DNA of 64,000 nucleotides, taken from Lytechinus pictus (taxonomy: Eukaryota). The DNA is taken from positions 5,954,001 to 6,018,000 of the forward strand of contig NC_087250.1 of NCBI RefSeq assembly GCF_037042905.1. Direction: 5' to 3'. A program made the translations under genes and the position numbers. How positions within the stretch are numbered: position 1 is the first letter of the stretch; each line of letters starts with the position of its first letter. Under the pieces are notes generated by a model. That model ran no database searches and was not told the DNA's origin. It was given only the letters and a program-made list of their open reading frames with translations. Shown piece after piece: positions 23,801-56,800 of the stretch.

Positions 23801-26800
23801 CACCAATCATTAATCATCATCACCAATCATTAATCATCATCATCATCATCATCATCATCATTATCATCATCATCATCATCATCATTATCATCATCATCAT
23901 CATCATCACCAATCATTAATCATCATCATCATCATCATCATCATAATCATCATCACCAATCATTAATCATCATCATCACCAATCATTAATCATCATCATC
24001 ATCATCATCATCATCATCATCATCACCAATCATTAATCATCATCATCATCATCACCAATCATTAATCATCATCATCATCACCAATCATTAATCATCATCA
24101 TCTCCAATTCCATCATCATCATCATCACCAATCATTAATCATCATCATCTCCAATTCCATCATCATCATCATCATCATCATCATCACCACCAATCATTAA
24201 TCATCATCATCATCATCACCACCAATCATTAATCATCATCATCTCCAATTCCATCATCATCATCATCATCACCACCAATCATTAATCATCATCATCCCCA
24301 ATTCCATCATCATCATCATCATCACCACCAATCATTAATCATCATCATCTCCAATTCCATCATCATCATCACCACCAATCATCATCTCGAATTCCAACAT
24401 CATCATCATCACCATCACCTCCACCAACACCACCACCACCACCATCAACAACATCATCATCATCGTTGTCACCATCATCTTCACCACCACTAATCTAACC
24501 CTTTCTGTCCATGTCTACTGCTGAATTTATCTCCAATCTCTGGTCTCCTCGTCTGTCTCAGGAGAACCTTGAAAAGGAATGCTTCTTCCGGATTTGAGGT
24601 CACCAGGACCTTCTCAATGTAGGAATCAGCAGCGCCTTTGTACCTGCAGATTTTACAGATTAAAGATAAATGCCAAGTGTGATTTACAATTTCAAAAGGA
24701 TTTTTCCAGAATCCAATCAAGTGACCATCAAAGAGGTCATAATATGTATGAATTTTAATGTGTGCCAAATGATTATTCTGGTAGAAAATGTGTCATTGCT
24801 GAAAAATTGACAAAACATAATATGTCCATTTATATAGCGCAGTTACTATGTGCATATTCTCAACTGCGCTTTGATACTTGGTATCACATTTTTACCCCGG
24901 CTGTAGCTAAGCCACCATATTAATACGTGCTAAAGCGTTCAAGGAATAAATCCTACCAGGTACCCATTCACCTCACCTGGGTTGAGTGCAGCACAATGTG
25001 GATAAATTTCTTGCCGAAGGAAATTATGCCATGGCTGGGATTCGAACCCACGACCCTCTATTTGAAAGTCCGGAGACTAATCCACTGGGCTAAAACGCTC
25101 CACAAAACATGCATGGTCTTCCAACCAGATATCGGGTCCTTTTCCAAGAAATAATAACACTGTCCCACATGTGCTTATCTGAGTTGGTTATATGTTAAGT
25201 TTGGTTATTTTTCAGCTTGGATTCATGATTTGACAGAGCCAGGTTTATTGTAAGTAAACCAGATTTAGATCTAACATGTTATGGTGAAAGCAACCATGCT
25301 TTTAAGAAGTTATGTTTATCATCACATTCCACAAGATGTTTCATATAAAAAGAAATGCTGAAATGCAAATAAGTTTCTGATGTCATAGTTTTGGTACTCT
25401 ATACATTATCAATATCACTTAAGAGATGTGACTCTTCATATTTGGACATCTATGTTGTCATGCTCCTGGAGATGTTTGGTTGGGCTTGCTATAGAACCCA
25501 TGCTGCTGAGGTTGCTTGGTTGGGCTTGCTAGACATTATTAAAGCGACCTTCCATTGACAAATCATGGGGATATCAAGGCTAATCTCAGAACAGAGAAGG
25601 GATTCAAGTCTGTCAATGGGCGGCATTCCTGGGGGTGTTATGTAATAGACGCCGGCATGTCTTGGAGGTCTAATATAGGAGAGCAATAGTTAGTAGACTA
25701 ACCAACCAGAAGTAAACTGTGTGTTTTCACTTTGAAACATGTAACTTCACAGAGGTTATTTATTTTGGTTTAGCAATCAAGAGACCTGCTAAGAGTAATA
25801 ATAACAATCACTAGTTCTTTCAAATTCGTGCTGTCTAAACTTTTATCGCATTAGTCCGACAAGCTCTCATGACAGACGGATTATATTATGCAAGTCAATT
25901 GACATTTTGCAAATTTCGTATTGACTCAATTTCCCCATGATTTGTCAATGGCAGGCAGTGACGGACCGTGACCCAGAGGAGACGAAGCATTGGAGGGGCG
26001 CAGCATTGTTCACAAACAATACAGTGCCCCTCCAATCAATTGTCTCCTCCGGGTCACGGTCCGCCACTGATGGCAGGGCACTTTAATATCATTCAAGTGA
26101 TATGACTTACGTTATTGGGACTTCTCTGTAGTCGTGCTGCTGGGGTTGGTTGGTTGGGCTTGCTTGCAGAGGATTCATGTTGACTACTGGCATAGACTTA
26201 TTCAGCAACACCTGTTTGTTTGTGACCCTCTCTCCTACATTTAGCAAAATAACAAGGTCATACAGTAAATGTAGATCTTAGGGGATTTAAGCAGATGTAG
26301 TAACAGAAAATTAATAAAGTCAACGCAATGGTCGATGCCGCAACGATATGCTAAGTGGGGTTGTTCTTGTAGACTTTACACGGAACATCCCTGCCAAGCT
26401 ACAGACTTTATAGCCTATTACAAAGGGAGATATGCTTTAAATTTGTAATTGTAGCCACTGGTATCATGAAATGTGCATAACTTGTACAAAGTAATAATCT
26501 TTTAAAGGGCTAACAGAATATAAATGGTGCAATAGTTGGTGAAATATGATTTTACATATCTCAGTTGGCTTATAACACAGGATGGGGTCATTAAGACATA
26601 GTGAGGATGGATTGAGCAAATGAGGAAAGAATAAGATGGATGAAATAGAAGAAAAAGATGATAAATGGTATCTCCAAAACTGCTGCATAAGGCGATGAAG
26701 CCAATAAATTCCAATTTTTTATTTTCCACAATAGACCTTATGTAATGGCATCGTTGCCTTGCCATCTTAGAGGCTGAAGCCATTGCCTTGATGTGTTGGT

Positions 26801-53800: not shown

Positions 53801-56800
53801 TACCTTTCTTATTTTACATCCTATTTTGATGAAATTTTCAGTGTTATTCTTGTTGGATTTTTCTCTTTTTATTCAAATCAACTTTTGTTGGGCTGGACTT
53901 GTCCTTTAGATAAAAACAGAAATATGCATATATTTTAATTTGATGTAAAATCTCAAAGTTTATCCAATAAAACATTTCATTTCCTTACATACATTGTAGT
54001 AACTGCTTCAGGACATACACATTCATATTTTTCTTTTATAAATGAATTGGAATTATATGACAGTGACATGCGTTAGTGCAATTAAGTGTCATCATTAATT
54101 GTCACAGCTTTAAAAGGCTAAATACAATTTCCTCATATCGTAATATTTGTCAGATTTTTTTACAGCAGTTCAAACTGAAATATGATAATTGGTTTGATAT
54201 AATTTCCAATTGTATTCTCTCTTGTGAAACCAGGGCCATTGAGCAATATTGACAATACACATGCAAAAGCCTACCTGGTTACATTGCAGGACACAATGCC
54301 TTTCCGATCCACTTCCACTATCATCCTGTTCTTTGAGAGCTGTTCTTGGATCAGGATGACCTTTTCTGTCCCTCGGACGATGAAGTAGCCCCCAGGGTCA
54401 AGAGGGCACTCGTTCAGTTTGGCCAGCTCGGCCTGAGATTTGCCGGTCAGCACGCAATTGGAGCTCCTCAGCATGATCGGCATCCTGTAAGAATAATAGA
54501 TGAAATTGATTTTTAAGTTTGATTGCAATTATGTGTTTTTAGGAGGGAAAACATTCCAAGGTCAAGAGGGCACTCGTTCAGTTTGGCCAGCTCGGCCTGA
54601 GACTTGCCGGTCAGCACGCAATTGGAGCTCCTCAGCATGATCGGCATTCTGCAGGAATAATTGATTTTTAAGTTTGATTGCAATCATGTGTTTTTAAGAG
54701 GGAAAACAACCCCTGGTCAAGAGGGCACTCGTCCAGTTATGCCAGCTCGGCCTCAGACTTGCCAGTCAGCATGCAACTGGAGCTTCGCAGCATGATCGGC
54801 ATTCTGTGGAAATAACAGATATAATTGATCTTTAAGTTTGATTGCAATCATGTGTTTTTAAGAGCCTGAGGGAAAACAACCCCTGGTCAAGAGGGCACTC
54901 GTCCAGTTAGGCCAGCTCAGCCTGAGACTTGCCGGTCAGCACACAATTGGAGCTTCGCAGCATGATCGGCATTCTGTGGGAATAACAGATATAATTGATT
55001 TTTAAGTTTGATTGCAATCATGTGTTTTTAGGAGGGAAAACAACCCCCGGTCAAGAGGGCACTCGTTCAGTTTGGCCGGCTTGGCCTAAAACTTGCCAGT
55101 CAGCACACAATTGGATTTTCGCAGCATGATCAGCATTCTGCAGGAATAAGAGATAAAATTAATTTTCACAACTGCAATGTTTTCAAAAGTGGAAGGGTCA
55201 AGAAGGCATTTGTTGATTTTGGCCAACTTGGCCTGAGACTTGCTAGTCAGTACGCAATCAGACCTCTAAAGCATAATCAGGAATAAGATATAAATTTGAC
55301 ATATTAATGATTTATTGTTGTGTTTTCCAAAATGAACAAGGGTCCAGAGGCTCATATCATAAACATTTACAATTAATTATGGCAATGTTGATTTTCATCC
55401 AATGGTGTTGAGCCCTGTTACCATGGTAATTACCAATAAAGTCAAAGCTACAACAGTAATTGTGAAATGGCCCCTGGAAAACGCCTATGGGGATTACAGA
55501 ATTCTATAATCAATGTTAATAAAAAATACCTTCCGATCGGCAAGTTATTTCTGATAACCCTCTGCTGCCCTCGTGTGTACTCTATGTCGACAGTGATGGG
55601 GGCGGAGTAAGTCATGTCACGTAGACGACACTCATGCGGAGAGGTTGGCTTGGTGATGTTGAAACTCTCCTCGACGTCCGGGCTACCAACGTAAATGTTT
55701 AAGTACCTGTGGATGAAAGAAAAAAAAGACCTTGGAGAATGGTGTAGGGATAATGCACATTACCAGGGGAATTTGTAAGAACTGTATGCGTGAGATTTTG
55801 GCCCCGTCTTACAAAAAGTTACGATTGATCCAATCAATCGTAACTCTATGGAAATCCATCAGTGTCATAATTTTTTCAACAGAAAATTTACAAAAGTTGT
55901 AAACAAAGGAGAACACACCATATTGTCAAGAAGTCAATGAATCTATGAATATACATCATATCTAGCAAAAATTTTTGAACATGCATTTTACATATTTACT
56001 TAACTGGCTTTCCATACTTGCGAATGATCAGATCAATCGCAACTCTTTGTAAGACGGGCACGGGGGCTACTAAAAGATCTCATGATGAAAGTAAACAATC
56101 AAGTATATATTCTACGTACTAAGAATATTGCTAGCTGATAAATCAAAAGTCAATCATATGATAAACTGCTCACTGGTTGTGATGATAATGACTATGATAA
56201 TTGTATGTCTTTATGACATAGTACTCACTTCATGTAGAAAGTTTGGTCAGCATCACTGGTAATCTTCTCATTTGCTTTCATTATCTTCTTGATCTGTAAA
56301 TGTAATAAACAAATAATAAGTCTTAGATTTATTTTTGGTTCCCCCCCCCCCATTCTCATTCGGTTAAGGTTTAGTTAGGTGTTTTTTTTTTTTGTTTTTT
56401 TTTCTCATTGAATTTGTGATTATATGATGTTTTTAAGATTTCTTTAAGTACAATTGTTGTTATGGGTTGGTCTCACACAAGGTTTCATCCTTTTTGGTCA
56501 TTACCTTCCTCACTTTCTTTAAAGTTGATGTTCATTGTACTTACATTGTCTATTTTTTATGTATTTTTATCTTGATCTCTTGAGGAGAAATAAATGAAAC
56601 TTGAAAAAAAAACTTGAAACTTGAAAATAGTATAATACTAAATGAATAATGAATATGAATGAATAAATGAATAATTGAATAAATAAACAAATAAATGAAA
56701 AATAAATAAATAGATAAACAAACATATAAATAAATAAAGTAAATGTGAATGAGAATAAATGAATAAATAAACACAAATATAAATGAATAAATAAAACAAG

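Follow-up and report, generated by a model that had tools for sequence, protein, structure and literature searches.

Does POLR3B of Lytechinus pictus contain exons that preferentially duplicate themselves into their own introns, as claimed in a preliminary description of the 64,000-nucleotide stretch of DNA analysed here (the window), and if not, how are the copies of exon sequence in these introns to be explained? The gene was mapped by a tblastn search with P0002 (S. purpuratus RPC2) followed by refinement of the GT-AG splice sites, which identified it as POLR3B (RPC2) with 26 mapped exons. The mapped part, from exon 2 to the stop codon, extends over 14740–58966 on the minus strand (–). Most of the exon matches to P0002 have identities of 93–100%, and the protein assembled from the mapped exons contains no extra segments relative to P0002. 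The residues of P0002 before position 40 have no match within the 64-kb window, and exon 1 was not found in a search of 58901–64000. The exon numbering of the preliminary description agrees with that of the mapped exons if the P0002 residues before position 40 constitute exon 1.

In a self-BLASTN of the gene, exons 5, 7, 9, 16, and 20, which are 5 of the 26 mapped exons, each matched one or more partial, direct copies within an adjacent intron. The copies reported for these five exons in the preliminary description are therefore real, including the five copies of exon 5, all of which were recovered upstream of that exon. The reported sizes are close, and the lengths given for exon 7 (47 bp, measured here as 51 bp) and exon 9 (102 bp, measured here as 111 bp) are slightly off. 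The E-values range from 4.5e-5 down to 0, and the similarities themselves are thus not due to chance. Every copy is in direct orientation and located in an intron next to its exon, at BLASTN offsets of 95–1042 bp. All are partial, with 13–97 nt of exon sequence. Of the 6 duplication events, 5 took in one exon-intron border and in no case both; the exception is exon 7, from which an internal piece was copied. Parts of exons have been copied into the introns beside them.

The authentic exon 5 is located at 54275–54484 (–), as defined by the refined junctions, and its acceptor reads TTACAG|G. Upstream of it, intron 4 contains an array at 54485–55278 (–) in which a 164-bp unit is present as five decaying copies, as delimited by self-BLASTN, TRF, and alignment. 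The unit consists of 71 nt of intron 4 and 93 nt from the start of exon 5, and the repeat region including the authentic unit extends over 54392–55278. The array occupies most of the 1045-bp intron, and TRF reports a period of 164 with 4.7 copies. The copies are 79–91% identical to the real unit. In the alignment, the pyrimidine tract and the CAG acceptor are retained in copies 1–4 (4 of the 5 copies), and an in-frame TAA appears in copies 2 and 3, which represent 2 of the 4 full copies. Copies 2–4 have variants in common. An arginine codon is AGG in the present exon 5 and in copy 1, and CGA in copies 2–4, from which it follows that exon 5 was copied at least twice, at different times. The region 54392–55278 is a single locus in the 812-Mb assembly, where the sole candidate match is the region itself.

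Exon 16 (29525–29652, –, refined junctions) has copies on both of its sides. An acceptor array was located in intron 15 at 29653–30696 (–) by self-BLASTN and TRF, and the repeat region including the start of the exon extends over 29614–30696. The units of this array are approximately 222–236 bp in length with an internal sub-repeat, and they terminate with the acceptor and 39 nt from the start of exon 16. The period reported by TRF is 222, with 3.9 copies, and the AG at the acceptor position is retained in at least four of the acceptor copies. Copies of the donor region of exon 16 were detected by self-BLASTN in intron 16 at 29140–29384 (–). The segment 29483–29537 was copied to 29144–29198 (55 bp, 98% identity), which corresponds to the last 13 nt of the exon and 42 nt of intron with an intact donor, GTATGA. 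A 157-bp repeat adjoins this donor copy. The region 29140–30696 is likewise a single locus in the 812-Mb assembly, matching itself and two segments of 40–55 bp.

At exons 7, 9, and 20 there are no more than two copies each, which makes these plain duplications rather than arrays. For exon 7 (49062–49211, –, refined junctions), the internal piece 49126–49176 was copied to 48944–48994 (–) over 51 bp with 92% identity and an E-value of 9e-14 (BLASTN). The copy is located 68 nt into intron 7, lacks a splice site, and is flanked by unrelated sequence. For exon 9 (40163–40300, –, tblastn and refined junctions), self-BLASTN detected a tandem duplicate at 39157–39738 (–) that comprises the final 97 nt of the exon, the donor, and the following intron. 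Its exon-like part is found at 39642–39738 and its intron part at 39157–39324, and the donor GTAGGA is retained. The exon segment, in which 40149–40259 was copied to 39628–39738 with the donor included, is 90% identical over 111 bp, compared with 71% for the 169-bp intron part. Relative to P0002, the authentic exon 9 is 92% identical and the intronic copy is 82% identical. The copy differs by six synonymous and two nonsynonymous changes, and its frame is open over 102 nt. This open frame and the intact donor made the copy a candidate for an alternative exon, which is unlikely given that its sole in-frame AG is preceded by a purine-rich stretch and lacks a pyrimidine tract. For exon 20 (26111–26234, –, refined junctions), two adjacent copies of the 3′ part of the exon were detected by self-BLASTN in intron 20 at 25411–25530 (–). 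The segment 26085–26164 was copied to 25411–25490 (80 bp, 77.5%), and 26135–26164 was copied to 25501–25530 (30 bp, 93%). The first of these copies formerly included the donor, which is now mutated, and contains one synonymous and eight nonsynonymous changes.

The number of affected exons was compared with the number expected by chance using circular shifts of the exon positions against the map of local direct repeats, which make up 16% of POLR3B. Five matched exons were seen and 5.72 ± 1.88 were expected, with a probability of 0.72 of reaching at least the observed number. The enrichment at exons that had been claimed therefore fails a shift test of the kind proposed beforehand. The 7% share of exons in the gene span, which had served as the baseline for that claim, is the wrong expectation, since a 160-bp unit meets one of 26 exons approximately 15% of the time. 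When POLR3B, POLR2B, and POLR1B were combined, 9 matched exons were seen versus 12.04 ± 2.67 expected from circular shifts. Local repeats cover 10.5% of the exonic bases of POLR3B versus 16.7% of the intronic bases, and exonic bases are less covered than intronic bases in all three polymerase genes. In a kinase sample of 16 loci with short exons and 1.5-kb flanks, 1 of 16 exons was matched versus 0.82 expected. A side control with 30 loci from a Pkinase search, mostly long matches (258–942 bp) that often cover the whole domain, provided no matched locus, with 1.04 expected from the 14 of 30 loci where control windows fitted. The number of affected POLR3B exons is what the repeat density of the gene predicts, and exons that seem to breed copies are to be expected of a gene with 16% local repeats.

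Copies that straddle an exon-intron junction were also obtained in other genes. The affected exons are 5 of 26 in POLR3B, 3 of 26 in POLR1B, 1 of 22 in POLR2B, and 1 of 16 in the kinase sample (locus L056), for a total of 10 of 90 in four genes. POLR2B has an additional array that abuts an exon with an overlap of 11 bp. The exon-edge arrays in POLR1B, POLR2B, and the kinase gene demonstrate that the phenomenon is not special to POLR3B.

The same arrays bear on the proposal that the copies are splice decoys under selection in an essential gene, or regulatory pseudo-exons that tune the (possibly unproductive) splicing of polymerase genes. The retention of the acceptor AG in the copies of exons 5 and 16, with the pyrimidine tract in the case of exon 5, would suit such a function, as would the intact donor copies of exons 9 and 16 and the better preservation of the exon 9 copy relative to its flank. 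The exon-derived parts of the copies are also less variable than the intron-derived parts. Among the intronic copies, 53 of 378 exon-derived columns are variable versus 73 of 258 intron-derived columns (pooled P 1e-5), and pairwise identities likewise favour the exon-derived part. However, this contrast arises mainly from the arrays P1B_743 and P2B_ex13, and it is not significant in the other two arrays (P 0.26 and 0.10). It was discounted as evidence of selection because the intron columns of P1B_743 and P2B_ex13 look unreliable in the alignment, with sequence beyond the array end in one and a G-rich simple stretch in the other. The differences are distributed over the three codon positions as 23:15:40, a pattern that fits neutral copies together with synonymous change in the live exon. 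The same kind of array is carried by the kinase gene as well as by POLR1B and POLR2B, stops are present in the copies, one donor is lost, the exon 7 copy lacks a splice site, and a purine-rich stretch precedes the sole in-frame AG available to the exon 9 copy. Selection for decoys is thus unsupported, and a decoy function of the copies is very improbable.

The best explanation, with a probability of roughly 0.7, is that the POLR3B copies are tandem duplications and minisatellites of an ordinary kind that are tolerated, with units that cross an exon-intron border by coincidence. The analysis showed that the copies are in direct orientation, originated locally, and have decayed, and that there is no enrichment at exons; neither a mechanism specific to exons nor a decoy function has to be invoked. 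Slippage or unequal exchange would duplicate a segment of 50–600 bp that runs from within an exon across one of its splice sites into the neighbouring intron. The copy still joined to the rest of the exon would remain the real exon end, and the other would fall within the intron, where it would only lengthen the intron and decay. Further unequal exchange could cause arrays to grow and shuffle. On the donor side, the most upstream site, which is the authentic one, would be chosen, as experiments on human F7 have demonstrated. Among the acceptors, the last one alone would be followed by a donor at exon distance.

It is also highly unlikely that the arrays or their copy numbers are artefacts from misassembly of a highly heterozygous genome. 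Such an artefact could account for the depth of nearly zero in the array bins when public sequencing runs were aligned, all from individuals other than the assembled one. However, the four runs are only 90–95% alike to the window, and their DNA contigs align only at exons, which explains the low depth. Furthermore, the units differ by 9–25%, share derived variants, and show higher-order structure, none of which is produced by collapse or duplication errors, and a similar architecture appears at independent loci on three contigs.

On the basis of their sequence, the POLR3B copies can be assigned to a class known from a handful of human genes, the minisatellites in which the terminal unit crosses an exon-intron border. 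According to passages of Borensztajn et al. 2006 (PMC1557585), intron 7 of human F7 contains a 37-bp minisatellite whose first monomer spans the exon-intron boundary, and intron 2 of IFI6 (6-16) and intron 13 of CBS are described likewise. The same passages list LMNB2, with a 100-bp monomer and 10–15 repeats, and intron 4 of PDGF, with an 81-bp monomer and 16–18 repeats, and describe the repeated pseudo-sites in such minisatellites as mostly silent (PMC1557585). In the RNA reads aligned to the window, the exon depth is only 1–5, and the 15 joint rows listed, beyond which there are 1243 more, all fall in repeats, dispersed repeats making up the bulk of the joint table. The exon 5 and exon 16 copies resemble this type in forming intronic head-to-tail arrays of at least three monomers. 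As in the cases given there (PMC1557585), the end monomer holds the authentic junction, and splice-site sequence recurs within the intron; monomers of approximately 100 bp are also present among those cases. The cases listed in these passages (PMC1557585) are all on the donor side, whereas the two largest arrays found here are on the acceptor side, where the authentic site is the last one. The unit contains 13–103 nt of exon here versus 4 nt in F7 as described in that source (PMC1557585). Unlike the F7-type cases, those found here occur several per gene and in several genes.

Other known forms of local duplication were compared with the copies. Internal gene duplications (Gao and Lynch 2009, PNAS), as outlined in excerpts of PMC4974935 and PMC2809761, are short, in tandem, and common, and some include splice sites and intron sequence that were already present. 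Unlike these, the duplications found here produced no new intron and only lengthened existing ones. The emphasis of Gao and Lynch in 2009 was reportedly on the creation of introns and the multiplication of whole introns. Tandem exon duplication is said to have been described by Kondrashov and Koonin in 2001 and by Letunic, Copley and Bork in 2002 as a source of mutually exclusive or alternative exons. In tandem exon duplicates the exon is complete, both splice sites are included, and length and phase are kept. The POLR3B copies are similar to them in being local direct copies of exon sequence in a neighbouring intron. Assignment to tandem exon duplication or mutually exclusive exons was rejected because all of the copies are partial and include at most one exon-intron border, and most have a broken frame. 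In the model of Rogers, as given in an excerpt of PMC4974935, an exonic AGGT segment is duplicated in tandem, and the two copies come to be separated by a newly spliced intron. Intron gain of this kind was also rejected, given units that include pre-existing intron, copies that reside in existing introns, and a protein without added segments. A search of the literature on pseudoexon and tandem exon duplication and on sea-urchin minisatellites provided nothing that directly matches.

A possible excess at exon edges appears when locally born events are counted instead of exons or bases. Of 20 local duplication events, 10 overlap an exon by at least 13 bp, compared with 3.5 expected on the raw gene span (P 0.0007). 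This count leaves out dispersed-repeat arrays and microsatellites, and the expectation was derived from the geometry of the units. The four long intron-only arrays that were tested (16752–17541, 18184–18495, 21672–22479, and 45205–45673) are all dispersed repeats, and both of the exon-anchored arrays, at exons 5 and 16, are single-locus and not carried by a dispersed repeat. Exon-anchored arrays therefore dominate among the locally born arrays of POLR3B. These counts would suit a real bias, in which the tandem arrays born locally in this genome would form or persist mainly where an exon end is part of the unit. In one version the conserved exon would serve as a master copy, exempt from decay and deletion, that keeps re-seeding, or exchanging with, the intronic array; in another, breakpoints would be favoured in exons. 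The copying of exon 5 at two different times speaks for such a bias, and the control genes point in the same direction, with 4 of 11 events versus 2.1 expected (5 of 11 when the 11-bp overlap is counted).

However, the excess falls to 10 events versus 7.0 expected (P 0.11) when the dispersed-repeat half of the span is removed from the denominator. This removal was made for consistency, because 16 of the 30 depth bins in 48800–56400 are high-copy. The control genes alone are not significant, with P values of 0.14 and, on half the span, 0.66. POLR3B was picked for the feature, and the counts are post hoc, with event definitions and unit lengths set after the data were seen. A pair with one constrained, undeletable member may be detectable for approximately twice as long as other pairs, which alone could generate a two-fold excess, and the coverage tests detected no enrichment. 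A bias towards exon ends is accordingly judged unlikely. Should the event-level excess hold across the whole genome, intron growth beside exons would seem to be shaped by a bias of mutation or of survivorship.

Among the 90 exons sampled in the four genes, the 10 affected exons suggest that junction-spanning repeats are frequent in the genome of Lytechinus pictus. That many of its genes carry series of pseudo splice sites from exon-border arrays, on both the donor and acceptor sides, is a doubtful but conceivable extension. The occurrence of such repeats on both sides would provide many natural tests of how an authentic site is chosen among near-identical neighbours. The POLR1B array contains a three-unit higher-order duplication, and the microhomology GTATGG was read at its unit junction in the alignment.

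The POLR3B (RPC2) gene was mapped on the minus strand from 58966 to 14740 using tblastn with S. purpuratus RPC2 (P0002) followed by GT-AG refinement, which provided 26 exons in an assembly of 812 Mb and 368 contigs. The translation of one window exon, 70 residues long, is 99% identical to P0002. No match was obtained within the window for the P0002 residues upstream of position 40, and the exon numbering is that of the preliminary description provided that these residues make up exon 1. Degenerate trinucleotide tracts (CAT/ATC/ACT, up to ~1.1 kb) appear at 23343-24483, 31103-32076, 40377-40803, and 14944-15227 and occupy much of several POLR3B introns, with intron 14 consisting almost entirely of the 31103-32076 tract. 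Two arrays in intron 7 (42365-43060 and 46317-46584) have a common 21-bp unit rich in ACGTACGTACGT, with ~32 and 12 copies, respectively.

In a self-BLASTN of the window, parts of 5 of the 26 exons (5, 7, 9, 16, and 20) recur in direct orientation within the neighboring intron. Every copy listed in the preliminary description is real, with slightly different lengths. A sixth exon, exon 26, is overlapped by a microsatellite match only. The exon 5 array (54485-55278, minus strand) contains five upstream repeats of a 164-bp unit, composed of 71 nt of intron 4 and the exon's initial 93 nt, and occupies most of the 1045-bp intron 4. The exon 7 copy is an internal 51-bp piece located 182 bp downstream with unrelated flanks. 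The exon 9 copy (39642-39738, 521 bp downstream) contains the last 97 nt of the exon and the donor, and belongs to a ~500-600-bp tandem duplication; the intron part of this duplication can still be recognized at 71% identity. An acceptor-side array of exon 16 extends across intron 15 (29653-30696, minus strand), and a separate copy of the donor region, 98% identical, is found in intron 16. Two copies of the 3' part of exon 20 lie side by side in intron 20. The copied segment covers one exon-intron border in five of the six POLR3B events, the exception being exon 7, and covers both borders in none.

The enrichment of such copies at exons was assessed using local direct repeats (offset ≤2 kb, low-complexity filter on), which constitute 16.2% of the 44,227-bp POLR3B span. 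The exon map was circularly shifted against the repeat map, and an exon was counted when the overlap was at least 20 bp. Five POLR3B exons were overlapped against 5.72 ± 1.88 expected (P = 0.72 for at least the observed number), and repeat coverage is lower in exonic than in intronic bases (10.5% vs 16.7%). The excess over chance proposed earlier is thus absent by this measure. The ~7% exon share used as the expectation underestimates chance overlap, since a 160-bp unit meets one of the 26 exons ~15% of the time. The paralogues POLR2B and POLR1B from the same genome, chosen as controls before inspection, provided 1 overlapped exon against 3.06 expected (contig C12, 22 exons, Diadema RPB2 reference P0122) and 3 against 3.26 (contig C13, 26 exons, L. 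pictus reference P0243, which matches the contig perfectly at every junction), respectively. For the three genes together, 9 exons were observed and 12.04 ± 2.67 expected. Of 16 short kinase exons with 1.5-kb flanks, 1 was overlapped, and control windows predicted 0.82. For residues 652-665 of P0122, POLR2B contains nothing matching between the exons on either side (C12, stretch L010, 2604-3383); a micro-exon that was missed, a difference between lineages, or a gap in the assembly could account for this.

The same architecture is present in other genes. The POLR1B exon encoding residues 923-965 contributes its last 103 nt, together with its donor and 72 nt of intron, to a unit repeated seven times with a period of 174-175 bp (stretch L013, 6990-8212; C13:11020990-11022212). 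This array contains two unit subtypes and a three-unit higher-order duplication, retains GT at the donor position in all six copies, and has a GTATGG microhomology at the unit junction, as read from the alignment. The 3' part of the exon for residues 743-791 is copied four times downstream, and a third POLR1B exon, one POLR2B exon, and kinase locus L056 each provide one further case. Exon-edge copies are not peculiar to POLR3B. The unbiased sample of POLR2B, POLR1B, and kinase exons contains 5 affected exons of 64; the POLR3B proportion of 5/26 lies at the upper edge of this rate (P = 0.048), as would be expected of a gene picked for showing the feature.

The long POLR3B arrays confined to introns do not represent local duplications. 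A repeat family with a 163-bp internal tandem array is found at 21672-22479 in the window, at 6422-6995 of stretch L015 (C13), at 6383-7133 of L010 (C12), and at 214-579 of L048. An intron of each of the three large polymerase subunit genes thus contains a copy of this dispersed family, and a further copy adjoins a kinase exon. Identity between the copies in the window and in the POLR1B intron is 99% over 575 bp; the POLR2B and L048 copies are related. The arrays at 16752-17541 and 18184-18495 have 1815 and 139 first-look candidates elsewhere, respectively. For the element at 45150-45700 (array 45205-45673), which contains internal repeats of 111 bp, a first look listed 4863 candidates genome-wide. 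The 40 scored matches, including the window itself, are all at least 96% identical, and 10 of them reach 100% along the entire 551 bp, which suggests a mobile element active very recently. The arrays of exons 5 and 16 each occur at a single locus in the assembly. In 314 kb comprising the window, the C12 and C13 stretches, and L018-L063 (stretches sampled for kinase exons), 10 of 28 tandem arrays with a period of at least 30 bp have a period of 146-174 bp. Among these 10 are dispersed families as well as unique arrays anchored on exons; a preference for nucleosome-sized periods is a guess.

Events were counted after excluding two microsatellite-like clusters (31066-32062 and 40371-40860) and seven clusters of dispersed repeats (five from the window and one each from C12 and C13) and merging two exon 9 blocks. 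By this count, an exon overlap of at least 13 bp is present in 10 of 20 local duplication events, where the raw span predicts 3.5 (P = 0.0007), a result for which unit lengths and the event list were fixed after the data were seen and the dispersal of the nine retained intron-only events was at most partly checked. A genome-wide bias of local duplications toward exon edges would produce such an excess. The expectation rises to 5.0 (P = 0.012) or 7.0 (P = 0.11) when 30% or 50% of the span, respectively, is removed as dispersed repeat. High-copy bins make up 16 of 30, about half of the sole stretch where copy number could be gauged, and the weaker significance is therefore the fairer one. The control genes alone provided 4 of 11 events against 2.1 expected (P = 0.14). 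A copy pair of which one member is constrained and cannot be deleted would also be expected to remain detectable for longer. With an event list drawn up post hoc, a genome-wide bias is considered possible, though with a low probability.

Pyrimidine tract and CAG are retained in exon 5 copies 1-4 and both are lost in copy 5. At least four exon 16 acceptor copies retain AG at the acceptor position. The donor copies of exons 9 and 16 are intact and that of exon 20 is mutated. Exon 5 copies 2 and 3 contain an in-frame TAA, and the exon 20 copy has 1 synonymous vs 8 nonsynonymous changes. Differences per codon position, pooled over all copies, are 23:15:40, as neutral copies together with synonymous drift in the live exon would produce. 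Judged by sequence, the intronic copies of POLR3B appear to be non-coding. An Arg codon is CGA in exon 5 copies 2-4 and AGG in copy 1 and the live exon, and so the exon end was copied, or exchanged with the array, at two separate times.

The exon 9 copy is better kept. It is 90% identical, vs 71% for the intron part of the same duplication, with an open 102-nt frame, an intact donor, and 6 synonymous vs 2 nonsynonymous changes, which points to constraint or to gene conversion with exon 9. The sole in-frame AG, however, comes after a purine-rich stretch, and exchange with the live exon is a simpler explanation than a functional alternative exon.

Selection for splice decoys, as proposed earlier, is unsupported. 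Among intronic copies only, 53 of 378 exon-derived and 73 of 258 intron-derived columns are variable, a contrast due largely to two arrays with intron columns of doubtful reliability in the alignment, one running past the array end and the other being a G-rich simple stretch. The contrast is not significant in the exon 5 array (P = 0.26) or the POLR1B 923-965 array (P = 0.10).

The sequencing runs compared are all 90-95% alike to the window; their contigs align at exons, with a depth of ~0 over the arrays and the listed joints in repeats. The arrays have units that diverge by 9-25% with common variants and higher-order structure, and the architecture recurs at independent loci, which argues against an assembly artifact. 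Contigs of two DNA runs from a related organism join 49799 straight to 52731; they lack the intervening ~2.9 kb of intron 6 (49800-52730), a segment of very high word depth, and such an absence would be expected if a mobile element had inserted in the L. pictus genome.

The exon-edge copies are best read as tolerated junction-straddling tandem duplication, an already known class. Gao and Lynch (2009) reportedly found duplications within genes to be common in general. Tandem duplication of whole exons was rejected, as was the creation of introns through AGGT duplication, the defining features of each having been tested and found absent.

Minisatellites with a first monomer that extends across an exon-intron boundary are listed by Borensztajn et al. 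for F7 intron 7 (37 bp), IFI6 (6-16), CBS intron 13, LMNB2 (100-bp monomer), and PDGF intron 4 (81 bp) (PMC1557585). The same authors showed the repeated donors of F7 to be functional yet silent, as the most upstream site is used (PMC1557585). The donor-side cases of exons 9, 16, and 20 and the POLR1B arrays resemble this F7-type class. The arrays of exons 5 and 16 lie on the acceptor side, as a mirror image of this class that is missing from the list of Borensztajn et al. (PMC1557585). The authentic site is the last in the acceptor-side arrays, and it alone has a donor at exon distance (210 nt vs at least 374 nt for the copies), which may be why it is chosen.
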